Positions 4,330 through 27,437 of a stretch of DNA of 64,000 nucleotides are shown piece by piece. The stretch covers positions 16,357-80,356 of the forward strand of contig CAYPVH010000006.1 in assembly GCA_964414145.1 (NCBI GenBank), written 5' to 3'. Positions within the stretch are counted from its first letter, which is position 1. Every line of letters begins with the position of its first letter. The notes under the pieces are model-generated. The model saw only the letters and a list, made by a program, of their open reading frames with translations. It had not been told where the DNA came from and searched no databases. This DNA is from an uncultured Gammaproteobacteria bacterium (GTDB lineage Bacteria; Patescibacteriota; Microgenomatia; UBA1406). The translations under genes and the position numbers were made by a program.

Positions 4330-5490
4330 ATGACAAACACAAAAGTACAAGTCTTAAAAACAGAAAGGGAGGATGGATATAGAATCTTTACTCTTTCACT
4401 TGAGGATGAATCCAACAACAAACGTGAATATCAGATTTACGTCTTTGATAATGACTTCCCCATACAGGAGTCTGACACAACAGAAACAATGCTTCAAGAT
4501 TTTGCCAAGAAACAAATGACTGACTGGTTAAGGGATTCGGATGGAAAATTTCCTAAAGACAAATATCGTGTTCTTGTTAACGGTGGAAGAATCACAACTG
4601 ACAATGTGAACAGCTTTCTGTCAGTACAGAAAAAAACTGCAGATCTTACTCGTACCAACGTAACCATTTCCGCACCTCTATTTGAATGGGCCAAGGCTAA
4701 GGCTAGGAAAGAAAATACTAGCTTTAGTGACTTAGTCTCCAGGGGTTTGCTAACACTTAAAGATTCGGATAAAGAAATTAATGCATGGTACAAAGCTCAA
4801 CGAGTTTTTTTCAATGAAAAACTAGGTGATTTAGGTTCCTTTGAGGTTTTTCATTACCTACCCAACAATTATGAGGTTTTTGACACCGATAAGCTAAAGG
4901 ATGTTCTCCAGAAGGTAGAAGTAAGGCGAACTGGTTGGCCAATTGGAGCGTATCTAACGGGGAGCAATCAGCGACCGTATCCACAACAGGATGGTATTAG
5001 GGCTGAGTATAACCCTACAGATTATCTAAAAGTAGATTACTGGTACGCCAAGAATAAGGGTGAGTTTTATTTTGCTCGGAATTTAGAATCTGACTCTGGA
5101 AATGGCAAAGACAAGCCCAGAACTAGTCTTTATTTTGACACCTTGATTTGGAGAATAGCTGAATCCCTTGAACATTGTCTTGCCTATTATAAAGGGCTAG
5201 AAATAGATGAAGGGGAAAGAGTTAAGATAAAACTATCTCTTGATGGACTCACTGGCAGATCGCTCAGCGCTTGGAATCAAATGAGAGCGTTAACACTAAG
5301 GCACTATGTTTGTGAGTCGGATAGGGCAACGTGGGAAATGGAGATCACGCTCGATGAGTTAGAAAAACAGTTAGATGAGTTGATTTATGACGCTACAAGA
5401 AAACTTTTGGTGATGTTTAACTTTTTTGTTCCCAACAAAGAAGTGGTACAAGATATTCTTAAAAGAGAGTACAGAAAGTCGAATCTTTAA
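4330..5490 (+). CDS. Hypothetical protein with ribbon-helix-helix-like segment (island gene)
   Basis: 386 aa; segment VTISAPLFEWAKAKARKENTSFSDLVSRGL resembles a CopG/RHH antitoxin-type motif; large uncharacterised C-terminal domain. Confidence 0.5.
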   Translation: MTNTKVQVLKTEREDGYRIFTLSLEDESNNKREYQIYVFDNDFPIQESDTTETMLQDFAKKQMTDWLRDSDGKFPKDKYRVLVNGGRITTDNVNSFLSVQKKTADLTRTNVTISAPLFEWAKAKARKENTSFSDLVSRGLLTLKDSDKEINAWYKAQRVFFNEKLGDLGSFEVFHYLPNNYEVFDTDKLKDVLQKVEVRRTGWPIGAYLTGSNQRPYPQQDGIRAEYNPTDYLKVDYWYAKNKGEFYFARNLESDSGNGKDKPRTSLYFDTLIWRIAESLEHCLAYYKGLEIDEGERVKIKLSLDGLTGRSLSAWNQMRALTLRHYVCESDRATWEMEITLDELEKQLDELIYDATRKLLVMFNFFVPNKEVVQDILKREYRKSNL

Positions 5491-5491
5491 T

Positions 5492-6322
5492 ATGAAGGCT
5501 AAAAATTATATAACTGCTAAAGCACGTCAAGATATTAGAAAACTAGCAGAATTAATTGGCGAAATCATTCCTGCCACAAGTCTTGGTAATTTTTGTTTCA
5601 AAAAAATCGCTAACCAACGGACATCTACAAAAAAATTCTGGGTTAATGGAAATAATAAGAAAGAACAAATCAGTGTTTTTTTGACCAACTTATACCGTTA
5701 CCACCCAAACCTTATATATAAAATTATTAGAGAGAGTCTTCCAAAAGGAATTGAAAGACGTTATAAAATGGGTAATCCTATTCTCCAAAGTGAAATTGGA
5801 GAACTAAATCAAGCACTTCTAGCACTAAACATAAATCTTTCTAAAGAAATCCATGATCTAAATTTACCAACAGAAAAACCTAAGATTGTTCCACCTCCTC
5901 CTGAATTCCAAAATATAATGAGGAAAATGTCACTTGATGTCAAATTAGAAGAAAATGTAAAACAACTCTACCTAGATGGACATATAAATGAGTCTGTAAG
6001 AAAGTCTCTAGAAATTTACGAAAAAGAAGTACAGGACTTAAGTAGACTAGAATTAATTGGTAAGGATTTAATGATTCGAGCCTTCAATGAAAATAGTCCA
6101 ATTATCTTAGTAGCAGATGTATCTACCAGAAGAGGAAAATCATTTCAAGAAGGTTTTAGATACATCTCGGCAGGGATAATGCTACATTGGCGAAACAAAT
6201 TCAGTCATGGAAATGAGGATCAAATTTCATACATTGATGGTTTTCAATTAATTATGGCAATAAATCAATTAATGTGTGAAATTGAAGTCAACAAAGCTTT
6301 CAAAAATAAAAACTCCTATTAG
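5492..6322 (+). CDS. Abi_C/TIGR02391-like C-terminal domain protein (possible abortive-infection component)
   Basis: ATG at 5492 lies 2 nt after the upstream stop. C-terminal HWRNKFSHG block resembles the conserved RN..HG signature of the Abi C-terminal family. The ORF track extends the frame to 5426, but 5492 is the likely start. Confidence 0.4.
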   Translation: MKAKNYITAKARQDIRKLAELIGEIIPATSLGNFCFKKIANQRTSTKKFWVNGNNKKEQISVFLTNLYRYHPNLIYKIIRESLPKGIERRYKMGNPILQSEIGELNQALLALNINLSKEIHDLNLPTEKPKIVPPPPEFQNIMRKMSLDVKLEENVKQLYLDGHINESVRKSLEIYEKEVQDLSRLELIGKDLMIRAFNENSPIILVADVSTRRGKSFQEGFRYISAGIMLHWRNKFSHGNEDQISYIDGFQLIMAINQLMCEIEVNKAFKNKNSY

Positions 6323-6438: not shown

Positions 6439-7455
6439 TCAATTCTCAATATTTAATAAAGGCTGGAACCATTTAACCAACTTATCTAATTCCTTTATAT
6501 TACTAGGTATTGAGTTATCTGCTATAAATTTTGCCTTATAATACTGATTCCAATAAGCTTCGCCTGATCGTCGTGGATGCTTACCCAAAAAAGAATCATA
6601 AAAAGATTCGTGAATTTCATAATGATGAGTGTGAATAAAATCAGACCATGTTTTACGGAGTTTGTTTTGATCGGAGCCTGGGCGGCAAATTATTTCTGTT
6701 TGTTCCATATTTCTTTCTACAATATCTCCCCATCCTTCTTTTAATAGCTTTATTGCTTCAATATCTGTCTTTGGCGCACTATAGCCAAAAATGCTAACCA
6801 TAAAACATCTTTTCAAAAAACACCGTATTGCATCCCATTCTCGTTGAATAAAATCCCCATCATTATAGTTCTTATTTTCTATTGGATATAACAGTTGTGA
6901 AGGCAAAAAGTAATTTCCACATTTTTTACATTTCCTCCCTATTACACCTCTCTTTTTATCTTTGGAACAATAGCCAACTTGTACATTTCCATGTAAAAAA
7001 AATAATTTAGGGAATTTGGTCACTCCATGTGAAGCTAATCTTATTCTAGATTGCATCAAAAACGGATCCCAATTAAAAGTCGCAATAACATCTTTTTCTC
7101 TCAATGAAAGAGTAATAACATCATATAAATTTGCTTCTCTAGGTAATTTAAGATTATTAAAATATTCTGAAATTTTTTCGTTTATTATCTCTACTTCTTT
7201 AGTATTTCCATTTTTAAATAATTTAGAATAAGCATCTTCAAAATTAACCTCAGACAAGGCTTGTAATTCTGTTGGAAATAAACTTTGAAGTGATAATTGT
7301 TTTGCTAAATCTTTCATCAAAGGAACCGGTTGCCCGTTCTCGTCACCATTATGCAATGCGGCATTATTAACTCCAGCACCAAGAATTAATACATGCGGTT
7401 TACGCATAAATATTTTTCCAATTTCTTCTTTTGCTGATACATTTAGATTATCCAT
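6439..7455 (-). CDS. SIR2-like (SIR2_2/DHS-like NAD-binding) domain protein, defense-type
   Basis: three motifs in order: VLILGAGVN (GAG), IATFNWDPFL (TxNYD-like), FFLHGNV (LHG). Start overlaps the upstream gene end (operon). Confidence 0.6.
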   Translation of the reverse strand: MDNLNVSAKEEIGKIFMRKPHVLILGAGVNNAALHNGDENGQPVPLMKDLAKQLSLQSLFPTELQALSEVNFEDAYSKLFKNGNTKEVEIINEKISEYFNNLKLPREANLYDVITLSLREKDVIATFNWDPFLMQSRIRLASHGVTKFPKLFFLHGNVQVGYCSKDKKRGVIGRKCKKCGNYFLPSQLLYPIENKNYNDGDFIQREWDAIRCFLKRCFMVSIFGYSAPKTDIEAIKLLKEGWGDIVERNMEQTEIICRPGSDQNKLRKTWSDFIHTHHYEIHESFYDSFLGKHPRRSGEAYWNQYYKAKFIADNSIPSNIKELDKLVKWFQPLLNIEN

Positions 7456-8530
7456 TCTTTTTTATTAAATGCATTAAATCATCTTCTTGTTCATATGCTT
7501 TCAATCTACCTGTCAATATACCTAATCTGTAATTAACTCCATCACTCATTAGTCTCCAATTCGTATCTTTAAGAGCTGAAATAACCGTTTTCTTCAGTAT
7601 GTTTTGACTATCTCTTTCATGTCTGTCTTCCTTAGTATTGTTTACTGAAAAATCTACTATTACATACTTACCAATATTTGGTTTGCCAAATTGTAAGTCT
7701 TGATAATAATTCTTTGCAAGAGCATTAATTAATGCTCTTTTAACTTGGATAAGTGTAAGTTTCTTAAGTTTTTTTGCTTTAATGTACCTGGGGTCTTTTC
7801 TTTTTTTTTCTAGTCTTTTTTGTTCATTTCTAAAACTCTTTAATCTTTCTATTGTATATACAAATTCATCACCTTCTTTTTTACTTAAGCAAAATTTATC
7901 TCGGTACTTATTAAGTAATTCTTTGTCTTGTTTTTCTTTATCGGCTTGTTCTTTTTCCCATTTCTTGTGATCATCAATCTCTTCTATAATGTAACTACAT
8001 TGAGAACATTCATCCTTCCAAATAGTTTTAGTTTTTAATGTTCTAATAGATTGCTTTAGTACTGAATTACAGCTTGGGCACTTTGGTTTCTCATATATTA
8101 TCCTTTTTCCTAAGTGATTAATAATTATTCCTTCTTTACAATGAGGACATTTTAGAGCAAAGTGAACTTCAAGATTCTCACCAACACTTCCGTGAAGATT
8201 TCTAGCTACATATTCCATCTTTGTTTCACATTTTTCACAGAATCTAGGTGGTGGAGTCGAGCAGTCGTATAGTTCTTGTTTTACCCTATCTCTCTCCATC
8301 CATTCATTAATTATCTTTTCTTTATTACAATATCTCTCTCCTGTATATGCCCAAATTGCAAGATTAAGTACTCTCTCAAGATCCTTTTTATTTTTGTCTA
8401 AAAAATGTTTAAGTGACTTGTATTTTGGATACTTAGAATTCTTAACTTCGTCTATTAAATGAAGAACATACTGGATAGTTCCAAGATCATAGAGTTCCTC
8501 GTAATAACTTCTATCTTTTAAGTATTGCAT
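7448..8530 (-). CDS. Multi-CxxC zinc-ribbon protein with lysine-rich coiled-coil, partner of the SIR2-like gene
   Basis: CEKCETK..CPHCKEG..CPSCNS..CSQCS motifs; translationally coupled on both sides (8530 and 7448-7455 overlaps). Confidence 0.5.
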   Translation of the reverse strand: MQYLKDRSYYEELYDLGTIQYVLHLIDEVKNSKYPKYKSLKHFLDKNKKDLERVLNLAIWAYTGERYCNKEKIINEWMERDRVKQELYDCSTPPPRFCEKCETKMEYVARNLHGSVGENLEVHFALKCPHCKEGIIINHLGKRIIYEKPKCPSCNSVLKQSIRTLKTKTIWKDECSQCSYIIEEIDDHKKWEKEQADKEKQDKELLNKYRDKFCLSKKEGDEFVYTIERLKSFRNEQKRLEKKRKDPRYIKAKKLKKLTLIQVKRALINALAKNYYQDLQFGKPNIGKYVIVDFSVNNTKEDRHERDSQNILKKTVISALKDTNWRLMSDGVNYRLGILTGRLKAYEQEDDLMHLIKKNG

Positions 8531-9123
8531 TAATTTCTTAATTCATAACGATATACTGTACTGTTATCCTTGTCTTCGCTATAAACCTTGATTGAATATT
8601 TAGCTCTGTTTTTGGGATAGAAATGAAAATTCATTTCGTTAAAGAAAATTATTCGGTAGCGATAATTCCCCTTCTCTAGAACCTTATCTAGCTTGATTGA
8701 TAACTCGGAGTTGGAGAAACTACCCTGAGCTTTTGCAAAGTAACGTTTGTCGAGAGTTAGATAGTTATTTTTATATCGCGCCTCACTAATTTTGTAGAAG
8801 TGCAGAATGTAGACATATCTATCTTTGTATTTGCCGAATGTATAAGTACAATCTCTGAATTTGTTTTCTGCCCTATACTTCTCCCCATACCTAATATTTG
8901 AGAGCATTGTAACCCCAAATCCCACAATTTTGGTTTCTAACGAACGCTTTAGGTAATCCTCTCTAGTAACTAATTTTGCCTCAGGGTTCCAAGCTTTGGC
9001 AGAGCTACTAAGAATACTTGAACAGGAAGCTTTGAGTTCGTTGAATTTTCTCGTATCAAAGAACAGAGCTTTTCGAATACGATTCTCAGGCGATAACTTC
9101 TTCCACTGAGTAATGCTTTTCAT
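8530..9123 (-). CDS. Hypothetical protein, first gene of the SIR2-like operon
   Basis: 197 aa ORF whose stop overlaps the start of the next gene (8530). Confidence 0.45.
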   Translation of the reverse strand: MKSITQWKKLSPENRIRKALFFDTRKFNELKASCSSILSSSAKAWNPEAKLVTREDYLKRSLETKIVGFGVTMLSNIRYGEKYRAENKFRDCTYTFGKYKDRYVYILHFYKISEARYKNNYLTLDKRYFAKAQGSFSNSELSIKLDKVLEKGNYRYRIIFFNEMNFHFYPKNRAKYSIKVYSEDKDNSTVYRYELRN

Positions 9124-9970
9124 AATTTTATTATATACTCATACTATGAGATTAAAGGTAATATTGGTACTTGTTCTAGTAATAGCTTCAATTGTTGTCA
9201 TTACTCACAAGGAAAACTGTACAAATGCTTTTTCTGTTCAGGATTATACGGAAAGCAAGAAGGGCTCAATAAAGATTTGCGATAAAGCAGTTTATTACAA
9301 CGATTCTAAAATTGTTGATGATAAGGAAAACAGCGAGCTTTTTCACTACAAACTATCCAACAAGATAGAGGACACTAAACAATATGTAAGAATCTTTGAG
9401 GACAATAAGCAAACATATATAGGTATAATCTCAGTAATTGATTATGCATCTTGGTTCAAGTCTACTATTAGCGTATATAAAAAAGAACCAGTCGGATTTA
9501 AGGAAATTTTTAAACTGCCCTTTAAAGATGTACCCGGGAGATTCGCTAAGATTAGTTTTGTTAACTATAACTTGTTTGATTATCACAATATTGAAGTTTC
9601 TGGAGATGTTGGATACTTGGGTTGTTACGGATGTCTTATTAATTGGGTAGACTATTACCGTTGGGATAGCAAAAAACAAAACTTTGTTCTTGTTAACAAT
9701 CAACATAAGCGCGAATTTGAGGATTTACTAAAAAGATTTGAAGAACAAAATCAAAGTGCTTGTTTGGAAACTTCAGGAACTCCGGGAGTAATCTCCGAGT
9801 TATACCCTGCTCGTAAAGATAGTAAGGGTTTTTGTGATGATAGAGCCATTGTTCCTTATATAACTACTAAGCAGGCAAAAACGCTACTACAGGCAATAAG
9901 GGCTGCAAAGTTAATCATTAAGAATGATAATATTTCCAGCAAAGAAGTAAAAAATATTGTAATAGAATAG
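9113..9970 (+). CDS. Hypothetical membrane-anchored/secreted protein
   Basis: N-terminal hydrophobic helix VILVLVLVIASIVVI, Cys-rich body. Confidence 0.45.
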   Translation: MLFIILLYTHTMRLKVILVLVLVIASIVVITHKENCTNAFSVQDYTESKKGSIKICDKAVYYNDSKIVDDKENSELFHYKLSNKIEDTKQYVRIFEDNKQTYIGIISVIDYASWFKSTISVYKKEPVGFKEIFKLPFKDVPGRFAKISFVNYNLFDYHNIEVSGDVGYLGCYGCLINWVDYYRWDSKKQNFVLVNNQHKREFEDLLKRFEEQNQSACLETSGTPGVISELYPARKDSKGFCDDRAIVPYITTKQAKTLLQAIRAAKLIIKNDNISSKEVKNIVIE

Positions 9971-9981: not shown

Positions 9982-10557
9982 TTATCTACTAGGAAAGTAC
10001 TCATTCCAAGGCAAAAGCAAGTCTTCCACATTATGTAACGATTCATCTCGATAGTATTTTCTACTCATTGTTTTAAGAACAAGTTCTGTACATTTTTCAG
10101 ACGCAATCTTAACTCGCTCTGTGAAAAGTTTATTTTCATCAACTGGATCGCTCTTTTTTTCGTTCTGAATATGGATTCTATTTCTTATTTTTCGAAGACT
10201 ATCTAATACCGAATAAAATTTAGTATCCTTTGCATCAAAGAAATCGTTACTTTTGGCGTGTTGGATATATTTATCAAGCTTGTCGATTTCTTTATTCTTT
10301 ATATACTCTATTACTATTTTAGGTACGTTTATTACTCCCTCAAAAGTATGATATTTGATTCTATGATAAAAATCATGTAGAACAGCCTCGTTTATAGACA
10401 TTAACCATATTACAATTGGTTTAATCAAGAGCATTTTAGTTTTTGCATTATCGGAATTATACAAATCATAAAAATGATTTAGAATTTCCAAATTATAAAC
10501 AACATTGTCACCCGTTTTAAAGCTCCCAAAAAAATTAGACTTAATTATGAAAGTCAT
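9982..10557 (-). CDS. Hypothetical protein, last gene of the helicase/MTase operon
   Basis: 191 aa ORF overlapping the MTase stop by 4 nt. Confidence 0.45.
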   Translation of the reverse strand: MTFIIKSNFFGSFKTGDNVVYNLEILNHFYDLYNSDNAKTKMLLIKPIVIWLMSINEAVLHDFYHRIKYHTFEGVINVPKIVIEYIKNKEIDKLDKYIQHAKSNDFFDAKDTKFYSVLDSLRKIRNRIHIQNEKKSDPVDENKLFTERVKIASEKCTELVLKTMSRKYYRDESLHNVEDLLLPWNEYFPSR

Positions 10558-13500
10558 ACTTTTTGGCTTTCGACAATTTTAATTTCTTCTTCAGTTAACT
10601 CATACAATTTATAAACCATTTGGTTGATCTTTTTTTCTAAGTTCACTTGCTCAATAGGTGGATTCTGAGGATCGTAAGAATGTTGTTTTGTTATTTCTAA
10701 AATCTGATCAACTAATTTGACAATTTTATTTTGCTTTGTTTCATCAACAAGTTTTATAGGAGTCTCCTCAAGAGGTTTTCCATAAAGTTCAAGTGAGTTA
10801 CCTTTTTTCTTTCCTCTGTAATAAAACCATAAAAAGTAAAGTTTGCTATTAAGTAGAGCCAATATATATTTAAGTTTGAAACTCTCTCTAAACTCTTCTC
10901 TTAAAGTTGTGATCATTATATCTGATTGTTCATAGTTCTTATCATTCTCGTAAGCAAATATGTTTTTCTTAGCCCTTCTAGAATTAGTTATTTTTTCTTC
11001 TTCGAAATACCACCTATCTCTTGGCCAATGAAGTGAATACCAAGGAATCCTACCGTTTTTACATTCTCGTTTCTCTTGTAATATTTTTTTATATTTTATT
11101 AGGTGCTCTTTCAAATTTGGAAAATCATCCAAGTTATGATCTTTAGTTAAATAGATTATAAAATAGTCTTCTTGTTTTAATATGTAGTATCTAAAGATAT
11201 GAGAATTTTTATAAAATGGATGAACAATTTTTCTCTCTCCATCATTCAAATTAAGATTTTTTAATTCATCTTTATTCAATACGAATATACCCTCACCTTT
11301 AACGCCATTAATTTTGTATTTCTGCATGTGTTTAGTAGTTAAAACATCGGCGCCCGACACAATACCTTGCTTTATATGACAAATATTCCCTAATAGGTAG
11401 CCTACATCTTCTATCTTATTAAGAATCTCATTTGATTTACTTTTTGAAACTCCAATTCCCTCAATTCTTAAATAGTTTTCCACTCCATCATATAAAAATT
11501 TTTGACCAACCTCATAGTAGTTTGTTTTTTTATCGTTTCCAAATAGAATGTTGTTTAATATATTTTCATCTGCTTGTCCCACTTGTTTTGTCAGAATATT
11601 TTTTGACTTCAATAAACGGTCATTATTTTTACTAAAAATAGTTATCATGTTATGTTGACCTAGCGCTGATTTAAATATTTTCAACTCATTAAAATTAATT
11701 AGATTTAGAATAACTGCTCTTTTTTTCAAATCCTCTCTCAATTTTTTAGCACCATATGCTGTGACATAATAATTGGTTGTAATAAAAGCTACATAACTAT
11801 TTTCTTTTGCAATGTTTAAGGCTAAGTGAAAAAAGAAGTAAAACAAATCCATTTTTCCCTGATAAAAGTCATTAAGGTTTCCTTTTGCAATTTCTCTAAA
11901 TATTTCTTTATTTCCCTTTTCTCCAACATAGGGTGGATTTCCAATAACTATATCGAAACCACCTTTTTCTTTAAACACATCACTAAATTCAAGTTTCCAA
12001 ATGAAAAATGGCTTAATATTTTTATGTCTAAGCTTAATTAAATTGTTAAGCTCTTTAATCTTCTTCTGCTCTTTAAATGATTCCTCAATGATTTCCCATT
12101 TTAAGTTATCAATATATTCTTTTAATGTTTGCTTCTTTGTCTTTTGTGATTCATCTACATATTGACTTATCTTATTTTGTAAATCTTCAAGTTTAATTTC
12201 TGAATTTGATTTACCAAAACCAAAAGGCAACTGCTCGGCTTTAAACTCTTTTGATTTCTTAAATATTCCCTCATCAAACAACTTAATTCCTTCATATTCT
12301 GAAATCAGACTATTACCTTGCATTATTTTGTGATCAAGGTTGGGAAGTGGACTTGGAGTAGACTCCTCTACAATAAGAGTTAGCCACAAACGTAGTTTGG
12401 CAATTTCAACTGCTCCTGGGTCTATATCAACTCCATGAATTGAATTAGAAATCGCATGTTTTTTAAGTTGATAGTCGGTTAGTCTTTTATCTAAATAAAT
12501 GTTTAGGATTTTTCTGGCTCTGACAATTTCATTAATCATCCCCAATGGAAAAGCTCCTGAGCCGACAGCTGGATCAGCAACCTTAATGTTCATTAGAAGC
12601 TCATCCAACTCATTTGCCTTTTTTATAATAGATTCAGCCAATAAGAGCTCATATTTGCCAGTATACTTATAACCTCGTTTTTGCTTTTCTCTAATCTTCT
12701 TTAAGGCAACACTATCATTTTCAATAATTCTATCGCCCGTATAAATAAAGCTCTCAATGTCTTTTCTTTCAATCCCTTCAGTTTCAGACTCTAAATAATT
12801 GATCAGACACTCTTGGCACATATAATGCACAATTTCTCTTGGGGTATAAAAGGCACCTTTGCTTTTTCTATCTCTTACTTGGAGTAAATTTTCAAAAACC
12901 TTACCAAGCATTTCTGGATCAACAGCAACTTCTTTTTCTAAAGGTTCATTTTCATTAACAGTGAAGTTATACCTATCAAAAACATCTAAGATTCCGTTAC
13001 CCTTATCTCCATTTTTTGTGGGAATATTATTGGAGAACACTTCATCTGGGATGTCGATGTTGGTAGTTTCCCATGCATAGTCATTCATTGGCTCAAACAA
13101 ACCACCATTTAAAAATGGCATCTTACAATTATTGAGTTTTGGGTAAAATGAATTCTTACCTCTATCCTGAGCTAGTGCTTCATAAAACAATGGCTCTAAT
13201 ACATCATTGAAAAAGTTTTTTCCATATTTTGATCTTCTCTCAAAAAGCTCTCTTAAAAAGTTTTTAGGTCCATCTCCCCAAGACTTATTTGGTGCAACTC
13301 CAAACCAACCTTTCTTTTGAAGAAAATACAAGAAGATAATCTGACCCATTGTCTTCTTTGCAAAATCAACAGTATCGATTTCCTTAGAACTAAACTCATC
13401 TTTAACACTTTCATCATTCAAAATGATTTTCTCTAAATTCTCTTTGAAAACTAAGAAGAGTTCTTTGTATTTTTCAAAGAACTCATTAGTTACGACTTCA

Positions 13501-14060
13501 ATGTCAAACGCAGATTCAAATTCTTCAAGGTTTGGTTTTTGATTGCTTACCAGTAAATTAACAAATCTGCTCTGTGCAGTATGTGTGCCTTCATTTTTCC
13601 CGACCAAAAAAGACCATCTTTTTGCTGGTGTAATTTCTTCTTTAGTAGTAATCTTATTATTTTTAACTTCTAGAGAATGCTCAAGTTTTATAAGTGAGAA
13701 ACGCCAATCATTTTTACTCTGAGGGATAAACGCAACTAGTGCGGCTAGTTTATTATTTGATTTTAAGTAGTCTGCAACGAAATTTCTTTGGGCTGTTCTT
13801 GCTTTATCCAGTGATTTATCATTTGTTAAATTTACTTCTAAAATATCTATCTTTTGTGACTTATTATCCTCAAAATAACCAAGCACTCTATAGTTATCAA
13901 TAAATGACTTGAAAGAATCTTTTACATACGTGTTGTCAACATTTTTATTGACTCTTGTAAAATCTTTTAGCAAATTGCTAATAAAGAGTTGAAATTTACC
14001 ATCAGTAAACTCTGTACTAAAAACTTCTTTTATTATTCTTTTTGCATCACTTTGTTTCAT
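10554..14060 (-). CDS. PglX/Type IIG/Type ISP-like N6-adenine DNA methyltransferase (Eco57I family, gamma-class) with C-terminal target-recognition region
   Basis: FYTPREIVHYM, VADPAVGSGAFP (motif I), GVDIDPGAVEIAKLRLWL, and catalytic NPPY (VIGNPPYVGEKG). N-terminal LDKARTAQRNFVADYL..ALVAF..DWRFSLIKLE resembles PglX/Type IIL N-termini. 1168 aa. Confidence 0.8.
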   Translation of the reverse strand: MKQSDAKRIIKEVFSTEFTDGKFQLFISNLLKDFTRVNKNVDNTYVKDSFKSFIDNYRVLGYFEDNKSQKIDILEVNLTNDKSLDKARTAQRNFVADYLKSNNKLAALVAFIPQSKNDWRFSLIKLEHSLEVKNNKITTKEEITPAKRWSFLVGKNEGTHTAQSRFVNLLVSNQKPNLEEFESAFDIEVVTNEFFEKYKELFLVFKENLEKIILNDESVKDEFSSKEIDTVDFAKKTMGQIIFLYFLQKKGWFGVAPNKSWGDGPKNFLRELFERRSKYGKNFFNDVLEPLFYEALAQDRGKNSFYPKLNNCKMPFLNGGLFEPMNDYAWETTNIDIPDEVFSNNIPTKNGDKGNGILDVFDRYNFTVNENEPLEKEVAVDPEMLGKVFENLLQVRDRKSKGAFYTPREIVHYMCQECLINYLESETEGIERKDIESFIYTGDRIIENDSVALKKIREKQKRGYKYTGKYELLLAESIIKKANELDELLMNIKVADPAVGSGAFPLGMINEIVRARKILNIYLDKRLTDYQLKKHAISNSIHGVDIDPGAVEIAKLRLWLTLIVEESTPSPLPNLDHKIMQGNSLISEYEGIKLFDEGIFKKSKEFKAEQLPFGFGKSNSEIKLEDLQNKISQYVDESQKTKKQTLKEYIDNLKWEIIEESFKEQKKIKELNNLIKLRHKNIKPFFIWKLEFSDVFKEKGGFDIVIGNPPYVGEKGNKEIFREIAKGNLNDFYQGKMDLFYFFFHLALNIAKENSYVAFITTNYYVTAYGAKKLREDLKKRAVILNLINFNELKIFKSALGQHNMITIFSKNNDRLLKSKNILTKQVGQADENILNNILFGNDKKTNYYEVGQKFLYDGVENYLRIEGIGVSKSKSNEILNKIEDVGYLLGNICHIKQGIVSGADVLTTKHMQKYKINGVKGEGIFVLNKDELKNLNLNDGERKIVHPFYKNSHIFRYYILKQEDYFIIYLTKDHNLDDFPNLKEHLIKYKKILQEKRECKNGRIPWYSLHWPRDRWYFEEEKITNSRRAKKNIFAYENDKNYEQSDIMITTLREEFRESFKLKYILALLNSKLYFLWFYYRGKKKGNSLELYGKPLEETPIKLVDETKQNKIVKLVDQILEITKQHSYDPQNPPIEQVNLEKKINQMVYKLYELTEEEIKIVESQKV

Positions 14061-14064
14061 AAAA

Positions 14065-17000
14065 TTAGTTACCTATAAAATATTCTGAGAGAATAATTTC
14101 CTTTTTTGCAGAAGCGTTCATATTTATTCCATTATCTGAATCTTCTAAAAATTCTGATGGAAGAGTAGTTTTTAAAATCCCCAAAATCTTGATTGGATTA
14201 TTAATAATCTCAATATTTTGAGATAGCTCTTGATAAATTTTCTGAGTTACTTTTTTAGGGATGCCTCCGTTATTAAGTTCAATGATAACTCTTCGCACAT
14301 ATTCTTCGTCATCTTCAGTAAACTTTTCATAATTTTTTACTTGCTTAGCATTTAAGATTTTAAAAAGCCTAGCGGCATTATCTCTACTTCCTCTTTTGGT
14401 TGAAAATTCATTCTCTTCATAATCTTCTACCTGATTTAACATCGAAAGATTCTTTTCAAGTAATTGGTAGAATAACTCATCAATTGTCATTTTCTTTTCG
14501 CTAACATTGGCATGCAATGTCTTTGCTGCTTCAATAAAGTCTATTTCAAGCGCATCAGTAGAAAAAGAGCTTTCGACAATAAAGAATTTCTGAATTTTTC
14601 CTTTTCTAAAGTATGTTAAAAGCTCTGTTTTATAATTCTGTGACTTTCTTGCAGTGCGAGCTTTCTTGGGGAGTCTTTTTATTTTTGCAAACAGTTTGGG
14701 ATCATTATCTCTGATATCTCTGATTTCTCGTAAGTATCCCAAGTAGCTTTTTTCATTTTGATCTTCTCCCTCAATCATTTCTTTTGAAAGTATTCGACTA
14801 AATAAACTATGTCCTTCTGGAACTTCATCGTCTGTAAGAAGCTTTGCATCAGCACCCAGTAAAGTAATAAATGCTTGAATTTTTGCTTCGGCTAGTTCTT
14901 TTAGTTTAATTTGCTCGTTGGACTGCTCAGTAGGGAATAAAGTATAGGTATAAATTTCTTTATGCTTGGTATCGACTCTATTTATACGGCCCACTCTTTG
15001 CATAATCTTGGTGGGATTCCAAGGAATATCGTAATTAATTACAACATTGGCTTGATGAAGGTTAGCACCTTCAGATAAAACGTCAGTAGTTATTAAAACT
15101 TTATAGTCATTTTTTATGACTCTGGAATTTGCATCAAAATTTTCCATCACAATTTCTCTCTCTGCTAGAGAACTACCACCTGAAAAATAAATGATTTGGT
15201 CTGGAAAAATATCTTGCAGGTTTTTTAGTAGGTATTCTGCCGTCTCTTTTGATTCAGTAAAAATAATAGACTTACCACTTTTTACTGGTTCTTCTAAAGA
15301 TAGTTTTTCTTTAAAAGCTAGAATCTTGGGATCCCTAGAGATATTAGCCCAAAGTTTCTTTATATTTCTCAAAATTTCTAAATCTTTTTGTAAATTCGTA
15401 ATATATTTTTCAGTGAAATCCTTAGACTTAAATTTTTCAGCTTTATTATTTTCTACTAATTTGTCGATAGATTCTAAATTTCCTTCATCTAAATAGTCAA
15501 ATATTTTTTGTATATGGCTTCTACTGACATATACACTTCCATTTTCATATGTTTTAATAAATTTTTCGTAGGAAGAAATAAATCGATCAATTGTTTTATT
15601 AAAAGCGTAAAAGCTACTTTCCAGTCTTTTTATCAACAGCATTTTCATGAATTTCATCATGTTTTTCTGTTTCTGTTTTTCTTGGTTAGTAATTCCTTTG
15701 TAGTATAAAAGAGGAGTGTAGCGTGAGTACTTAAAATCATTAGTAATTATTTTTAAAGTTTCAAAAAAAACAGCGTCTTCTTCTTTGCTAAATTCGTAAA
15801 ATATTGGTGCAGGATCAGCAATTTTAGGAAAACTCATTTTTCGATTTTGCAGATCATCACCATAATATTTAATAATTTCTGTTCGGGTTCTTCTTACCAT
15901 TAAATATTTAAGAACTTTTTCCCTAATCAACCTAGAATTTTCTTTTGTTACATCAATGTATCTTTGCTTATCTCTCTTTCGATCTAGATCCTTTAATTTA
16001 TTATCCAAAACCTTAAAAAATCCTTCTAAATTCGGCAAGTTAGGAATGGTACTTTGCTTTGATCTTTGAAAGAGTTTTATTTGAGACAGTAGGTCTTTTG
16101 GTGAGTTATTATATGGAGTAGCTGTAACAAGAATAACCTTTTTCCCTCGGCATATTTGAGCAAGCTTTGCATAGGTTTCAGTTTCTTCTGTGCGGAATCG
16201 ATGTGATTCATCAACTAAAACTATATTATATTCTTTATGTAAATTTTTATCGATAATTTTATCCAGCATTCCAATTGATTCACATCTATAGTCTTTAGAT
16301 CTAAAACCAAAGTTTTTAAAAGAATTTTTCCAGCTACCTTCGTTATTTTCATCAATCAAGTGCGGAGGTGCTAATACCAAAATTCTACCTGCTAGCTCTT
16401 GGCAAAGCATAGTACCCATATATGTTTTGCCAAGACCAACAACATCAGACAAAAATACACCACCATACTCGTCAACAATTTTCTTTGCGTTGATAACAGC
16501 ATGATCTTGATATTTCAGTTCTTTGAAATTATCTGGTCTGTAATTGTGACTTAGATTTTCTTCTTCATTAATTTCTTCTCTGAAGTATTCATAGAGAAAT
16601 TTCAGATAGAGTTCGTATGGTGTAATGTCTTCTCTAATCCAAGTATCCTTTTCAATTGTCTCAATATATTTTTCACAAACATCAATGCCATGTTCCCAAA
16701 GTTCATTAAATTTATTCAATGCAAATTTGTAGTCTGAAGGGTTTTTAAGCTCAACATTAAATTCTAAGTTATCTATCAAACCACTTTGTGTAAAATTACT
16801 GGAACCAGTAATGACTCTCCCAAGATCTCGATCATCTTCATTAAAGGTCATTATGTAGAGTTTTGAATGAATTTTTTCTTCAGGGTAAGCTCTTATTTCA
16901 AGCTTTCCAGACTTTGCCCATTCAAGAAACTTATGTACTCCTGTCTCAACTTCATGGTTGTTTTCACTCTTATCCATCTCATTTTTAATACTCTCACCAA

Positions 17001-17250
17001 TATCATCACCAATTTCCTTGTAGGATTTTGAGACTTGAATAAGATCGTAAGTTTGCTTATTGGTACTGATTCCGATTAAGATTCTAATCTTTTCAGTTTT
17101 TTCGAGCTGAGGGTATATAGCGTAAAAACCACTGGTATAGAAATAACCAACTAAAATATCAAATAGACGAGTATCTTTGACCAAAACATTAAATCTACTT
17201 TTTAGGTTTTCACCATTCTCATTAGTAATAAATGTTAAGTCTGTACTCAT
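14065..17250 (-). CDS. PLD-family nuclease domain fused to SF2 (DEAH/SNF2-like) helicase
   Basis: N-terminal HKD motif HSKLYIM..GSSNFTQSGL; helicase motifs GLGKTYMG (I), VLVDESHRFR (II), LVTATPYNN (III), QRVGRINR (VI); 1061 aa; 5 nt upstream of the MTase gene. Confidence 0.8.
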   Translation of the reverse strand: MSTDLTFITNENGENLKSRFNVLVKDTRLFDILVGYFYTSGFYAIYPQLEKTEKIRILIGISTNKQTYDLIQVSKSYKEIGDDIGESIKNEMDKSENNHEVETGVHKFLEWAKSGKLEIRAYPEEKIHSKLYIMTFNEDDRDLGRVITGSSNFTQSGLIDNLEFNVELKNPSDYKFALNKFNELWEHGIDVCEKYIETIEKDTWIREDITPYELYLKFLYEYFREEINEEENLSHNYRPDNFKELKYQDHAVINAKKIVDEYGGVFLSDVVGLGKTYMGTMLCQELAGRILVLAPPHLIDENNEGSWKNSFKNFGFRSKDYRCESIGMLDKIIDKNLHKEYNIVLVDESHRFRTEETETYAKLAQICRGKKVILVTATPYNNSPKDLLSQIKLFQRSKQSTIPNLPNLEGFFKVLDNKLKDLDRKRDKQRYIDVTKENSRLIREKVLKYLMVRRTRTEIIKYYGDDLQNRKMSFPKIADPAPIFYEFSKEEDAVFFETLKIITNDFKYSRYTPLLYYKGITNQEKQKQKNMMKFMKMLLIKRLESSFYAFNKTIDRFISSYEKFIKTYENGSVYVSRSHIQKIFDYLDEGNLESIDKLVENNKAEKFKSKDFTEKYITNLQKDLEILRNIKKLWANISRDPKILAFKEKLSLEEPVKSGKSIIFTESKETAEYLLKNLQDIFPDQIIYFSGGSSLAEREIVMENFDANSRVIKNDYKVLITTDVLSEGANLHQANVVINYDIPWNPTKIMQRVGRINRVDTKHKEIYTYTLFPTEQSNEQIKLKELAEAKIQAFITLLGADAKLLTDDEVPEGHSLFSRILSKEMIEGEDQNEKSYLGYLREIRDIRDNDPKLFAKIKRLPKKARTARKSQNYKTELLTYFRKGKIQKFFIVESSFSTDALEIDFIEAAKTLHANVSEKKMTIDELFYQLLEKNLSMLNQVEDYEENEFSTKRGSRDNAARLFKILNAKQVKNYEKFTEDDEEYVRRVIIELNNGGIPKKVTQKIYQELSQNIEIINNPIKILGILKTTLPSEFLEDSDNGINMNASAKKEIILSEYFIGN

Positions 17251-17693: not shown

Positions 17694-19022
17694 ATGGAAA
17701 ACAAAACGAAACTTAATGTCGAATATGTCGACATAAACAAACTAAAAGCAGCGGAATATAATCCACGAAGATGGGAAAAAGCTGCAGTTACAAGTTTAAC
17801 TAAAAGCATTCAGAAACATGGCTTAGTAGACCCTGTTATAGCAAACAGCTTTCAGGAAAGATATGGAGTAGTTATTGGCGGACACTTTCGCTTAAAGGTT
17901 GCAAAGGACTTAGGTTACAAACAAATTCCAGTTGTCTGGCTAAATATTTCAGAGATTGAAAAGGAGAAAGATTTAAATCTGAGACTAAATAAGGCAGTTG
18001 GAGATTGGGACTGGGATTTATTGAAAAGCTTTGATGAGAATCTGCTTTCAGACATTGGTTTCTCCTCTGAGGAGCTCGATAAAATCTTTGATTTTGATAA
18101 CCCTGAGTTGTTTGATCTTAATAAAGAATTAGAAAAGCTGAATATAAAGGAAGTTAATACTAAAAAGGGAGATATTTATCAGCTGGGAGAGTCAAGATTA
18201 ATGTGTGGTGACAGTACAGTTGAAAGTGATGTTTTGAAGCTGATGAATGGAGAGAAGGCAGATCTGTGCCTAACAGACCCGCCATATATACTAGACTACC
18301 TTAATGGCAAGCAAAGACATGGGAAACCAACCGTTGGTTTTGGGGCAAAGAAAAACCGAAGGTATCTGGAGACGGATATTTTGCCTCCTGACTTTACTGA
18401 GAAATGGATGGCTAATATTAGCAAAGTACAAAATAAAGACTTTTCCATAATAGTATATGAGAACTGGAAAAACATAAGAACTATATGGGGTGAAATGGAG
18501 AAATACTGGAAGGTAAGAAATATGATTGTCTGGCATTTGCCAAATAGAGTTCAAGGCTTCTCAGCTAAAAGCAAGTTTTTCAATAAACACGATATTGCAA
18601 TGGTTGGAACAAGCATTAACTCAATTGATTTAAATAATGAGCAGGAAGAAGAGCTTCTTCAAAACGAATATGAGACAGCTCTCTTTGCAATATCAGGCAA
18701 GGCATACTGGGAACCATATAAAAAGGGGAAAAAACATTGCCCAACAGACTTTATTGAATACAAAGCAAGCGACGAAAAATCCTCAGGGCAAGGAGTGATC
18801 TTCGGTACAAAACCAATAGATATATTAGTTCCATATATTAAGGTATTAAGTAGAAGGGGCGATCTATTAATTGAACCTTTCTCCGGAAGCGGCAGTACTT
18901 TAATTGCAGCAACAAAGTTAAAAAGAAGGTGTTATGGTATGGAAAAGTCTCCTGTGTATTGTGAAGTAATTATTAAACGTTTTGAAAAGTTTACCGGACT
19001 GAGAGCTAAAAAAATAACATGA
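17694..19022 (+). CDS. ParB-like N-terminal nuclease domain fused to N6/N4 DNA methyltransferase (phage/plasmid-type orphan MTase)
   Basis: ParB-N block VIGGHFRLKVAKDLGYKQIPVVWL; MTase motif IV LCLTDPPYI; C-terminal SAM-binding IEPFSGSGSTLIAA typical of PF01555-type methylases. Confidence 0.75.
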   Translation: MENKTKLNVEYVDINKLKAAEYNPRRWEKAAVTSLTKSIQKHGLVDPVIANSFQERYGVVIGGHFRLKVAKDLGYKQIPVVWLNISEIEKEKDLNLRLNKAVGDWDWDLLKSFDENLLSDIGFSSEELDKIFDFDNPELFDLNKELEKLNIKEVNTKKGDIYQLGESRLMCGDSTVESDVLKLMNGEKADLCLTDPPYILDYLNGKQRHGKPTVGFGAKKNRRYLETDILPPDFTEKWMANISKVQNKDFSIIVYENWKNIRTIWGEMEKYWKVRNMIVWHLPNRVQGFSAKSKFFNKHDIAMVGTSINSIDLNNEQEEELLQNEYETALFAISGKAYWEPYKKGKKHCPTDFIEYKASDEKSSGQGVIFGTKPIDILVPYIKVLSRRGDLLIEPFSGSGSTLIAATKLKRRCYGMEKSPVYCEVIIKRFEKFTGLRAKKIT

Positions 19023-19534
19023 AAAGCATAGAGAAAAGAATCAGTAGAAACAAAAGAGAGCTTCTAAAACATTTAGAGACTATGCCAATTGTTCAGATTG
19101 CCTGCAAGAAGGAAGGTGTTGGCCGATCAACTTACTATCGTTGGCGAAAAGAAGATCCAGTGTTTTGTAGAGAAGCAGACAAAGCACTTTCGCAGGGTAA
19201 AGCACTGATGAATGATTTAGCAGAAAGTAAGTTATTAACTGGAGTAAAAGAGCAGAATATGACTGCAATAATATTTTGGTTGAAGAATAATCACCCTAAT
19301 TATATGAGTTCTTTTAACAAACTAAATAAGGATCAAATGGAAACTCTACTAGACATATTTGTCAATGCATCAACAATTAATAATTACAACAGTTTAAAAA
19401 AGATATTTAACCTAGAGATACCAGTTAAAATAATACGTCCAGTATTAAGCCTGTTAAAAATCATTGTCAGTAACAAAAGAGAGAATAATAACTACAGAAA
19501 ATTAAAATTATTGTCTGAACTCAAAGGAAAATGA
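19019..19534 (+). CDS. Phage-like HTH protein (terminase-small-subunit-like or regulator)
   Basis: GVGRSTYYRWRKEDPVF..AIIFWLKNNHP pattern common in phage small terminase/HTH proteins; start overlaps the upstream stop. Confidence 0.35.
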   Translation: MKSIEKRISRNKRELLKHLETMPIVQIACKKEGVGRSTYYRWRKEDPVFCREADKALSQGKALMNDLAESKLLTGVKEQNMTAIIFWLKNNHPNYMSSFNKLNKDQMETLLDIFVNASTINNYNSLKKIFNLEIPVKIIRPVLSLLKIIVSNKRENNNYRKLKLLSELKGK

Positions 19535-22056: not shown

Positions 22057-23367
22057 ATGATAAACGGAAACAATAACATAAATTACTGTCTTTATGCCAG
22101 AAAGTCATCTGAATCAGATGAAAGACAAGCGATGAGTATAGATGGACAGCTAAAAGAAATGTACTATGTTGCCAAAAAAGAGAAACTAAATATATCAGAT
22201 GTTATTACAGAAAGTCACTCTGCGAAAGAGTCAGGTGAAAGACCAGGCTTTAATCAGTTAATAACAAAAATCACAAAAGGAGATTTTAATGCAGTCCTTA
22301 CTTGGGCACCTGACCGATTAAGCAGAAATGCGGGTGACTTAGGAAGAATAGTGGACCTAATGGATCAACAAAAGTTAGTTCAGATAAGAACTCACTCCCA
22401 ATCATTTAGTAATAATCCTAATGAAAAGTTCCTGCTTATGATTCTCTGTTCTCAAGCCAAACTAGAGAATGATAATAGGGGAATAAATGTTAAACGTGGA
22501 CTCAGAAGTAAATGCGAAGCAGGTATCCGTCCGGGTGTAGCTCCTGTTGGATATATAAATGTACATAAAGAAAATAGAATAGCAACTATTGATATTGATA
22601 AAGAAAGAGCAATGATTATTAAGGAAATGTTTAAGAAAGTTGCAAATCAAGGATATTCCGGACGAATGGTAAAGAAATGGTTAGATAATCTTGGTTTTAG
22701 AACAAAGGGTGGATACAGAATTGCTTTAAGCAAAGTATATACAATACTAAAGAATCCCTTTTACTATGGAGAATTCAAATATGGCGGTAAATGGTATCAA
22801 GGAATTCATGAGCCACTAATTACAAGAAGCCTGTTTGACAAAGTACAGATAGAACTTGAAATAACCCCAAGACAATGGAATAAACAGACATTTCCCTTCA
22901 AAAAACTATGTAAATGTGGCAGCTGTGGTGGTAGTGTAACAGCAGAGATTAAGTACAGAAGAACAAAGAATGGAAAGATTAATACTCATATATATTATCA
23001 CTGCAATAGAATTAAAAAGTATGATTGTAAAGAACCGTATATTAGAGAGGAAGACCTTATTAAACAACTAATATCTTATTTACCTAAACTTAAACTAGAT
23101 ATTAATTACTTATACAGAGAATTTGAAGTAGAAATAAAAAGACTGCAACATTTAAAAGCAACAGTTATTGATAAATATAATCCCTACAATATTCAACTCA
23201 CTCCACATAATACGAGTAGTAACAAAATGAATCTATCTAAAACTGATGTAGTGAAAGACTATGTTTTACACGTTTTAACATATGGTACACCTGAGGAGAG
23301 ATTGAAAATATTGAAAGGAGTGAAAACTAGGTTTTTGCTCTCAAAGAGAAGTCTTAAGACTATCTAA
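22057..23367 (+). CDS. Large serine recombinase (resolvase/invertase-type catalytic domain plus recombinase/Zn-ribbon extension)
   Basis: N-terminal CLYARKSSESDERQAMSIDGQ matches the YAR(V/K)S..Q catalytic-serine motif; 436 aa; Cys cluster CKCGSCGG..YHCNR in the C-terminal region. Confidence 0.75.
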   Translation: MINGNNNINYCLYARKSSESDERQAMSIDGQLKEMYYVAKKEKLNISDVITESHSAKESGERPGFNQLITKITKGDFNAVLTWAPDRLSRNAGDLGRIVDLMDQQKLVQIRTHSQSFSNNPNEKFLLMILCSQAKLENDNRGINVKRGLRSKCEAGIRPGVAPVGYINVHKENRIATIDIDKERAMIIKEMFKKVANQGYSGRMVKKWLDNLGFRTKGGYRIALSKVYTILKNPFYYGEFKYGGKWYQGIHEPLITRSLFDKVQIELEITPRQWNKQTFPFKKLCKCGSCGGSVTAEIKYRRTKNGKINTHIYYHCNRIKKYDCKEPYIREEDLIKQLISYLPKLKLDINYLYREFEVEIKRLQHLKATVIDKYNPYNIQLTPHNTSSNKMNLSKTDVVKDYVLHVLTYGTPEERLKILKGVKTRFLLSKRSLKTI

Positions 23368-25300: not shown

Positions 25301-25303
25301 TGC

Positions 25304-25389
25304 GGAGAGGGTGGGATTCGAACCCACGTTCGGCGTTAACCGAAACACGCTTTCGAGGCGTGCGCAATCGTCCGCTCTGCCACCTCTCC
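25304..25389 (-). tRNA. tRNA-Ser (anticodon CGA)
   Basis: minus-strand read GGAGAGG-TG-GCAGAGCGGAC..-CACGC-CTCGAAA-GCGTG-long variable arm TTTCGGTTAACGCCGAAC-GTGGG-TTCGAAT-CCCAC-CCTCTCC-G. 7-bp acceptor stem, canonical T-loop, anticodon loop CU-CGA-AA; CCA not encoded. Confidence 0.85.
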
Positions 25390-25502: not shown

Positions 25503-27437
25503 TTATAAAACGTATTTTTTTGTATTGCTTTTGATTATATAGTCAAGTAGTTCACTCAGGCTAATACTAGCGCCACAAACCACCTTGTCGGCGCCACCGT
25601 AATAAAGATAAACTAAGTCCCCTTTTTGCACAAAACCACAGGGGAAAACTACATTATTAACTACCCCTTCTTTTTCAAACCAAGCTTCTGGCTCTAAAAT
25701 TGGGTAAAGGGTACGACCAATAACTTTAGACGGGTCATTTAATTCTAGAAGTAGGGCGCCAACTCGGTAGTGCCGATCTATTTTACTTATGCCATGATAA
25801 AAAACCAACCAACCCTCTGCAGTTTTTATGGGAGGAGTGTTGATGCCTATTTTTACTGCGTCCCAGTAACCGGCGCGCGGGGTAATTATTCCTTCCGAAC
25901 CTAAAAAATGGCCTTCTTCAAATTTTAAATCGGTAACCATGTCAATAACTATGTTTGGCTCTATTCGATGAAAAAAACAGTAGTTGCCATTAATTTTTTC
26001 GGGGAACAGAACGCCATCTTTATCCATAATATTTGGGGGTGAGATGATTTTAGGTGGCGCCCAATTTTGCCAGTTACGATTTAAAAAATCGGGAACGGTA
26101 ATGTGGGTAAAGGCCAGTTGGGCTAATCGGCCATTATGGGCTGTGTAGCACATATAAATAATGTTATCAATTAACGTGAGTCTAGGGTCTTCAGCGCCAT
26201 GGGGTAAACCAGGCTCAGCAGGCAATTCGAAGGTTTCCCGAAGGGGATAAATTGGCTCTGGTAAGCGCTCATCAATATACAAGCCGTCGATACTTATTGC
26301 CAACCCCAGGTGTGAAACGTTATTTTCAGATTGCGTTCGGTAAACAATGTAAACTTTGCCATTTATTTCGACTGCCGCCGGGTTAAAAACAGCTTGGCTT
26401 TCCCAGCTGTTTTGGGGAATTCTTTCCAGAAGCGGATTATTGGGAAACTTATGGCACTTGAGTGTTGCGGCGGTATTTGTTTCCATTTTACTCAGTAAGT
26501 TGGGCAACTTAATACTGGCAACGGCACATACCGAGTCGGCGCCACCGTAGTAAACTTTTAGCTGATTGTTCTCAACCAGCGCCCCTTCTGGAAAAACTAT
26601 GTTTTCTACCTGACCCGTTTTTTCGTAGTCTGTTTGGGGAATAAGTAAGGGGTTTTCTACCCGACCAATAATTTTTTTGGGATCCTGTAAATCCAGCAAA
26701 ACGCCTTCGATACGAAATTCTGTGGGAATATTACTACTTGAATAGTGCTTCATGTATGAATATATGATAAGCCAACCCTGTTCAAGCTTTATAGGAGGCG
26801 CCCCAAATTCTACATGGTCGCTATTGACCCGTTTCAGATTAAAGGTATGCTGGTTTAAATTGGCATACCAGTCTTGCCAAAAAGACTGATCCCACAATGT
26901 TTCTATATTTTTAAATTGAGCAATGGCAGTTGAGGCAAATGGCGTATCGGTGTTTACCGAAAGCATAACTGTATACAAGTCATTTATTTTTTGTGGGAAT
27001 AAACTCATGGCCTTGGCGTTAAAAGGTGTTACCAAATGCTTTTCTTCTACATTTTCAAGGTCGCTGCTTATGGCTAAGGCAACCTTAATACCATGGCTTG
27101 AATGAGGGTAATTGGCTAGCGCGGTATAGAAAATGTAATACTTGTTGTTAATGTAAGTAACCCGCGGATCTTCACAGCCATACCTTTCCCACGAATATTT
27201 TGGTTTAATAAATTGTGTTCGATCTGTAAAGTTATAACCGTCAATACTCTCTGCTTTACCAATTGTTGATAATCTTAATTCTTTTGTATTAATGTTTACC
27301 ACGTTACTCATTGCTCGGTATAACATGGTGTATTTATTGGCTTGCTTAACCACACAACCGTTAAATGTGGCAAAGCCTTCCCAGTCGTTTTGCAAATTTG
27401 GCTTTAAAATTGGGTTTTGAGGGTAACGAATTAGCAT
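25503..27437 (-). CDS. Tandem two-domain GH130-family glycoside phosphorylase/hydrolase-like protein
   Basis: FNPAAVEINGKVYIVYRTQS..LGLAISIDG..GAEDPRLTLIDNIIYMCYTAHNG matches the GH130 (DUF377) signature nPaav..YRa..G.S.DG..EDPR..YmtYta. Present twice in 644 aa. Confidence 0.7.
   Translation of the reverse strand: MLIRYPQNPILKPNLQNDWEGFATFNGCVVKQANKYTMLYRAMSNVVNINTKELRLSTIGKAESIDGYNFTDRTQFIKPKYSWERYGCEDPRVTYINNKYYIFYTALANYPHSSHGIKVALAISSDLENVEEKHLVTPFNAKAMSLFPQKINDLYTVMLSVNTDTPFASTAIAQFKNIETLWDQSFWQDWYANLNQHTFNLKRVNSDHVEFGAPPIKLEQGWLIIYSYMKHYSSSNIPTEFRIEGVLLDLQDPKKIIGRVENPLLIPQTDYEKTGQVENIVFPEGALVENNQLKVYYGGADSVCAVASIKLPNLLSKMETNTAATLKCHKFPNNPLLERIPQNSWESQAVFNPAAVEINGKVYIVYRTQSENNVSHLGLAISIDGLYIDERLPEPIYPLRETFELPAEPGLPHGAEDPRLTLIDNIIYMCYTAHNGRLAQLAFTHITVPDFLNRNWQNWAPPKIISPPNIMDKDGVLFPEKINGNYCFFHRIEPNIVIDMVTDLKFEEGHFLGSEGIITPRAGYWDAVKIGINTPPIKTAEGWLVFYHGISKIDRHYRVGALLLELNDPSKVIGRTLYPILEPEAWFEKEGVVNNVVFPCGFVQKGDLVYLYYGGADKVVCGASISLSELLDYIIKSNTKKYVL

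Follow-up and report, generated by a model that had tools for sequence, protein, structure and literature searches.

A solitary SIR2-fold protein family as a candidate NAD+-consuming defence factor, examined in a compact Patescibacteria island

The 64,000-nucleotide stretch of contig CAYPVH010000006.1 (assembly GCA_964414145.1), here called the window, carries three tightly packed open reading frames (ORFs) on the minus strand, which were named A, B and C. A (8530..9123) encodes a protein of 197 amino acids (aa) which belongs to a very small family and shows no recognisable domain, B (7448..8530) a zinc-ribbon/coiled-coil protein of 360 aa and C (6439..7455) a SIR2-fold protein of 338 aa. Our analysis favours, with a probability of roughly 55%, the reading that C is a self-contained, free-standing defence candidate of SIR2 type which would consume nicotinamide adenine dinucleotide (NAD+), that it represents a previously unnamed branch of the SIR2/sirtuin proteins, and that A and B are not its obligatory partners.

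The relation of C to SIR2 was drawn from structure and from profile-to-sequence alignment by hhalign, since sequence profiles gave no match. Window C has no Pfam match at E<=1 and none in NCBIfam or PADLOC. The Pfam families SIR2 (PF02146) and SIR2_2 (PF13289) matched none of 41 C-family members even at E<=10, and the family profile found no SIR2 chain among the PDB sequences. An AlphaFold2 model built from the family alignment (predicted local distance difference test score 88.7, predicted template modelling score 0.89) showed a SIR2 fold of Rossmann type into which a small domain is inserted. The model was compared with PDB structures, and one figure was obtained per matched structure. PsSIR2 of SIR2-HerA came first (14.2), followed by another SIR2-HerA SIR2 (13.1), ThsA (13.0), KomC (12.8 and 12.2), Af1-Sir2 (11.5), Avs5 (11.4), SIRT1, SIRT2 and SIRT6 (10.4-11.0) and FAM118B (9.5), and the best non-SIR2 structure reached 6.9. 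The top matches are defence NADases rather than deacylases.

The C-family profile was aligned by hhalign with the sequence of Thermotoga Sir2 (Sir2Tm), which is identical to PDB 1yc5_A. The alignment pairs T126-F-N128-W-D130 of C with T97-Q-N99-I-D101, H155-G with the catalytic H116-G, and C163, D166, C176 and C179 with the zinc cysteines C124, C127, C148 and C151. This pairing fits both the fold match and the invariance shown by the paired residues. Along the protein, G26-A-G28 represents the Rossmann/NAD motif, N128, D130 and H155 are the catalytic-type residues, and C163/D166/C176/C179 make up a Cys3Asp zinc knuckle at the sirtuin position. They are followed by the motif FGYSAPxTDxEA (residues 223-234) and by a stretch of about 80 aa at the C-terminus in which H275, H278 and H293-P-R-R296 are invariant. 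The motifs G26-A-G28, T126-F-N-W-D130-P and H155-G156 are invariant in all 41 homologues, and each of the aligned NAD-pocket, catalytic-type and zinc residues is either invariant or conserved in at least 90% of them. The GIPDFR cofactor-loop motif of sirtuins was not found in this alignment. The initial annotation had described C as SIR2_2-like, with GAG, TFNWD and LHG motifs in the right order. The motifs and their order hold, and the AlphaFold2 structure and hhalign support a SIR2 fold with the catalytic N/D/H in place, but neither SIR2_2 nor any other profile matched, a result which the annotation had itself named beforehand as evidence against its reading. On the model and the alignment, C is a divergent protein of the sirtuin superfamily which keeps a Cys3Asp zinc knuckle and possesses an added conserved C-terminal region.

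The C family is large and widely spread. At least 1305 clusters were found in a protein search at E<=1e-3. The best 120 of these have 317-386 aa, are 52-69% identical to window C, contain no Pfam domain and are unnamed or 'hypothetical protein' in every source; the organisms represented among them include Ktedonobacterales, Saccharibacteria and Acidimicrobiales. C was also found in at least 588 metagenome loci, on 14 IMG/VR contigs, on plasmids of Legionella pneumophila, Vibrio coralliilyticus and Stenotrophomonas, and on a Pseudoalteromonas replicon, and no homologue was found in the GenBank phage collection. Among 47 distinct loci which could be assessed on both sides of C, 29 have no same-strand neighbour within 40 nucleotides (nt) on either side. 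A Pfam scan of 138 neighbours gave 98 families, 25 of them listed, and no recurrent partner. The commonest neighbour families were DUF5677 (4), FRG (2) and HNH_5 (2), with restriction, methylase and reverse-transcriptase genes scattered among the rest. On the basis of the uncoupled loci, the missing recurrent partner and the distribution over plasmids and several phyla, C behaves as a solitary accessory gene which is horizontally transferred.

Some of its locations are rich in defence or mobile genes. In the Legionella plasmid pLPL (L179), C stands alone between umuD-umuC upstream and a helix-turn-helix gene and type I-F CRISPR-Cas downstream. In pOCN014 it is again alone, with a SLATT/ATPase cluster on one side and 'mobile mystery proteins' and McrBC on the other. 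One locus adjoins a Bub ubiquitin-like system and a type I restriction-modification system, one possesses a DUF4357-DUF6994-C-DUF2779 string beside a serine recombinase, and in one a T5orf172 gene comes after C. A Thoeris-like association with TIR genes was considered and found to be confined to L007/L008, where the TIR genes are 2 kb off and uncoupled. In a cassette found in other organisms, in L011/L012 (4315-7223) and L202/L203, a LexA/CI-type S24 peptidase gene is situated directly upstream of C, and B comes after C. The S24 gene or umuDC upstream of C may link its expression to DNA damage or to the repressors of mobile elements.

ThsA, SIR2-HerA, DSR2, KomC and Avs5 are SIR2 immune effectors and provide the basis on which a mechanism for C can be proposed. 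Because C structurally resembles the SIR2 of SIR2-HerA, ThsA, KomC and Avs5, it would be expected to consume NAD+. The protein would bind NAD+ and, when triggered, would cleave the bond between nicotinamide and ribose. This activity would lower NAD+, or ADP-ribosylate a target, with the outcome that phage replication would be aborted (abortive infection). Sensing and control would be built into the C polypeptide or its oligomer, probably through the C-terminal region with H275, H278 and HPRR (293-296).

C resembles SIR2-HerA (Nezha; PsSIR2, PDB 8w9l, also 8yhx and 8j4u) in fold, but it has no coupled ATPase in the window, and no HerA/FtsK-type family is present among the 25 neighbour families listed. 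Further differences are the profile-undetectable sequence of C, its zinc knuckle and its HPRR C-terminal region. ThsA of Thoeris is a SIR2-SLOG NADase (PDB 7uxt), and its SLOG/Macro signal-binding domain was not found in C; neither such a domain nor an adjacent TIR protein ThsB was seen in C or its window neighbours, and PADLOC gave no match. C is also without the KomA/KomB partners of KomC (Kongming; PDB 8zsf and 9v0g) and without the STAND NTPase of SIR2-STAND Avs5. FAM118B, another structural match, is a filament-forming human sirtuin. Compared with SPARSA and the other SIR2-APAZ-pAgo systems, C has 338 aa with no further recognised domain, and no Argonaute is found nearby. DSR1 and DSR2 are proteins of about 1000 aa which begin with SIR2 and end in a long sensor, whereas the C family has 317-386 aa and no PADLOC match. 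From the classical sirtuin deacylases (Sir2Tm 1yc5, Af1-Sir2 1ici, SIRT1-7) C differs in lying below Pfam SIR2 detection, in the absent GIPDFR loop, in the replacement of one zinc cysteine by aspartic acid, in the extra C-terminal region and in its accessory and mobile genomic habit. TIR, HerA and Argonaute domains were all absent from the window neighbours tested, in agreement with the statement of the initial annotation that the usual SIR2 partners are missing.

The nearest functional precedent is the stand-alone 'sole-Sir2', which is reported to convert NAD+ to ADP-ribose and a homologue of which is reported to protect against T2 and T4 (bioRxiv 10.1101/2024.12.27.630466). It shares with C a single small Sir2 protein that stands alone, so a one-gene SIR2 system has a precedent, of different architecture. 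Compared by description, 'sole-Sir2' has about 440 aa with an extra N-terminal domain and a C-terminal DSR2-like Sir2, whereas C has 338 aa with the SIR2 part first and a short C-terminal region.

Several observations weigh against the reading of C as a free-standing NAD+-consuming defence protein. No PADLOC model matches it, and the hhalign match with Sir2Tm is weak when taken alone (probability 14%, E 0.0019). About one third of its neighbours are ordinary metabolic genes, and the association with defence islands is qualitative only. The identity of 52-69% between phyla is unusually high for a defence protein. B and C became adjacent at least two times, which leaves room for a role of B. The retained zinc knuckle and the high conservation would also fit a protein-modifying sirtuin.

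This last alternative, in which C is a sirtuin-type protein deacylase or ADP-ribosyltransferase acting on a conserved cellular or mobile-element target and possibly linked to DNA damage, is unlikely but is the main one. The positions of the zinc module and the PNLYD / TFNWD / HG core align with the deacetylase Sir2Tm, the conservation across phyla is consistent with such a role, and LexA/UmuD-type S24 genes are positioned directly upstream of C in L011 and L202, as umuDC is in pLPL. The closest structures are nevertheless defence NADases, and the family alignment lacks the GIPDFR motif of the cofactor loop. SirTM has a conserved neighbour of substrate type, the macrodomain/GcvH-L; C is patchy, carried on plasmids and islands, and no conserved substrate-type neighbour accompanies it.

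Homologues of the same length were found elsewhere for A, B and C each, and the three are therefore taken as genes and not as chance ORFs. The N-terminus of C lines up with the N-termini of its relatives in the family alignment, which together with the full-length homologues of all three makes the gene starts credible. The junction of A and B is an overlap of 1 nt formed by the TAA stop codon of A and the ATG of B (TAATG), and by their coordinates B and C overlap by 8 nt; three tightly packed minus-strand genes of 197, 360 and 338 aa had likewise been described in the initial annotation. Scans of the three proteins with Pfam, NCBIfam, PADLOC and PHROGs gave only weak zinc-ribbon matches, for B.

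B is composed of an N-terminal helical bundle (residues 1-90), a double zinc ribbon with four CxxC pairs (95-187), a coiled coil of long helices (188-253) and a C-terminal ferredoxin-like domain (260-357) which carries NWRLMSDG..YRLGIL.GRL. The CxxC pairs are C98/101, C128/131, C151/154 and C175/178. Across 45 homologues the eight cysteines are all invariant except C131, which is conserved in at least 90% of them; together with the helices at 188-253 this bears out the earlier description of a 360-aa protein with four CxxC pairs and a coiled coil. No sensor or enzymatic domain was recognised in it. Longer forms of about 556 aa (L057, L061, L072, L076, L080, L095 and others) are extended at the C-terminus by a conserved part which holds a fifth zinc ribbon (TCGxC...WWNLDGxxCxxC) and a basic domain that is likewise conserved, and forms of about 700 aa (L029, L031, L050) have an added AAA_33 P-loop kinase. 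This kinase was the only match when the extensions of the long forms were scanned with Pfam.

A word-indexed protein search gave 146 clusters of B. A scan of the GTDB species representatives gave 285 loci, the best 80 of which were fetched and combined with 5 viral ones into a set of 85 B-anchored loci. The genome loci are overwhelmingly from Patescibacteria. A tightly coupled neighbour of B was seen upstream in 46 of the 80 loci and downstream in 33, and its identity is variable: ResIII/HsdR helicases, trypsin-like proteases, DUF2779, SAVED, SMODS, HamA, SduA_C, DUF4238, DUF4209, DUF3644 and HNH proteins were all found. Type IIG methylases occur in 15 B loci and DUF2779 also in 15. Homologues of the ParB-domain DNA methyltransferase of the window are present in 26 of about 85 B loci compared with 1 of about 100 C loci, and homologues of its terminase-small-subunit-like (TerS-like) protein p171 in 23 of about 85 B loci. 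In the loci used for this comparison (L029-L096, L199 and L200) the pair is separated from B by variable defence cargo, over distances from 243 nt to more than 7 kb (9.1 kb in the window), and it is upstream of B and divergent in all but three (L074, L083 and L199, where it is downstream). This arrangement seems to mark a conserved hotspot for insertions within Patescibacteria islands, which are possibly phage-satellite-like. We read B as a recurrent frame or resident gene of islands whose interior is a hotspot for the insertion of defence genes; it is not a dedicated SIR2 partner. Two genes beside B were checked for kinship with C or A, and both were rejected: a 341-aa gene after B in L017 is of DUF4209 type and not a homologue of C, and a 300-aa gene before B in L015 bears no resemblance to A.

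Four distinct loci have B and C side by side, namely the window, L011/L012, L202/L203 and L108. The order is B then C in the window and S24 peptidase-C-B in L011/L012 and L202/L203. In L108 C also precedes B, and the upstream gene differs from that of the S24 cassette. The three B-linked C proteins outside the window are 76-87% identical to each other and about 55% identical to window C, and among the B proteins of these loci the identity is 65%, compared with 27-32% to window B. The different identities and the opposite gene order indicate at least two independent juxtapositions of B and C. Close relatives of the B-linked C proteins also occur without B: P0044 (81%), P0067 (77%) and P0063 (74%).

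A two-gene system, in which B would sense infection for or regulate the SIR2-like enzyme and would pair with other effectors elsewhere, is rather improbable. B and C are translationally coupled in the window by the 8-nt overlap, the two families are rare and were brought together twice in different orders, and the coupling of B to variable protease, nuclease, SAVED, HamA and SduA-type neighbours is what a conserved module with swappable effectors would be expected to show. Against this, a C homologue was found within 8 kb of B in none of the 85 B-anchored loci, and B is present at only about 3 of at least 55 other distinct C loci. Some neighbours of B form complete systems that are sufficient in themselves, and this points to shared residence in a hotspot rather than to partnership. 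The lack of a recognisable sensor or enzymatic domain in B also speaks against a partnership. As equally close relatives of C are without B, the partnership is kept as a minority explanation.

A is far rarer than B and C. Run exhaustively over 1.84 billion representatives, HMMER gave 7 relatives, the best 48% identical, and no match was found in Pfam, NCBIfam, PADLOC or PHROG. Two homologue contigs were read, and neither carries B or C. In L181 an HD-domain gene resembling SpoT/RelA-type hydrolases comes after the closest relative (48% identity); in L182 (3-1784) an ATPase C-terminus and a gene for a 233-aa protein precede a distant relative (33% identity), which closes the string. Apart from these two loci, which were fetched through A itself, no homologue of A was found in about 200 B or C loci. 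A looks like an independent, rare island cargo and may belong to other small modules.

The initial annotation had proposed a three-gene defence system and had named beforehand the lack of conservation of the three genes as a unit in other genomes as evidence against it. Conservation of this kind was not found: the trio A-B-C was seen elsewhere only in copies of the same sequence, two of the 7 A relatives were read and stand without B and C, none of the 85 B loci has C, and most C loci are solitary. A system in which A and B sense infection and C depletes NAD+ is thus very improbable, even though the three ORFs overlap on one strand, a TATAAT-like box is present directly upstream of A and known SIR2 partner domains were not found nearby. 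A promoter/terminator scan gave fewer sites than shuffled sequences did. In the compact genomes of Patescibacteria, tight gene overlap alone is not enough to define a system. A and B are island genes in their own right and not obligatory partners of C; their tight packing with C reflects a compact island, or at most a facultative accessory relationship between B and C.

The reading of C as a free-standing SIR2-type defence candidate can be extended, tentatively and with low confidence, to a separate class of sirtuin immune proteins which are self-contained and invisible to Pfam. Such proteins would combine sensing and NAD+ destruction in one chain of 340 aa, probably as an oligomer or filament. 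The signal would perhaps be a conserved nucleotide or a DNA-damage-linked one perceived through the His-rich/HPRR region, and in some lineages the protein would be recruited by B, itself a hotspot marker in phage-satellite-like Patescibacteria islands.

The flanks of the three genes contain a type IIG restriction-methylase, an HKD-Snf2 helicase, a ParB-methyltransferase and a serine recombinase. Since these genes surround A, B and C, the setting in a mobile defence island put forward in the initial annotation is supported. The plus-strand stretch 4330-6322, convergent with C, codes for a 386-aa protein which matches phrog_38563 (function unknown) and then a Hypoth_Ymh protein with weak HEPN-type PADLOC matches (PD-Lambda-3_B, Aga_HEPN); the pair may be another small defence module. 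On the other side, an ORF at 9113-9970 (+) has no domain match and has homologues in 3 other B loci (L035, L036, L087). Its probable start is the ATG at 9146 (MRLKVILVLVLVIASIVV...), which gives a signal-peptide or transmembrane-like N-terminus and leaves only about 22 bp to the divergent start of A.

The minus-strand stretch 10554-17250 encodes the HKD(PLD)-Snf2 helicase of 1061 aa (PADLOC candidate 'HKD+Snf2', E 3e-50) and the type IIG restriction-methylase of 1168 aa (PADLOC E 1.6e-192), and with a coupled unknown protein of 191 aa it extends over 9982-17250 (-). The same helicase-methylase pair adjoins B in L013/L019, L036, L082 and L083. In the window this pair is followed at 17694-19534 (+) by the ParB-domain DNA methyltransferase (phrog_498, E 1.8e-81) and then the TerS-like p171 of 171 aa (phrog_309, E 2.4e-9). 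A large serine recombinase with Resolvase, Recombinase and Zn_ribbon_recom domains is situated at 22057-23367 (+), 2 kb from a tRNA-Ser(CGA) at 25302-25389 (-), and is likely the integrase and the end of the island. Its homologues were found in 14 B loci and 5 C loci. Just past the tRNA, two tandem GH130 genes of mannooligosaccharide phosphorylase type (25503-29141, -) are presumably ordinary chromosomal genes which lie beyond the island.

Few immune effectors are as common as the SIR2 enzymes, which surveys detect by means of Pfam or PADLOC profiles. The C family, with more than 1000 clusters in many phyla and on Legionella and Vibrio plasmids, escapes these profiles. As the profiles fail and the annotated copies seen are called 'hypothetical protein', censuses of NAD+-targeting immunity miss this family. 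C is conceptually close to the known SIR2 NADases, and as a small, solitary and highly conserved protein it lends itself readily to cloning, to assays of NADase activity and to challenge with phage. The sirtuin features which it has kept, such as the zinc knuckle, could help to connect the housekeeping sirtuins with the immune NADases.

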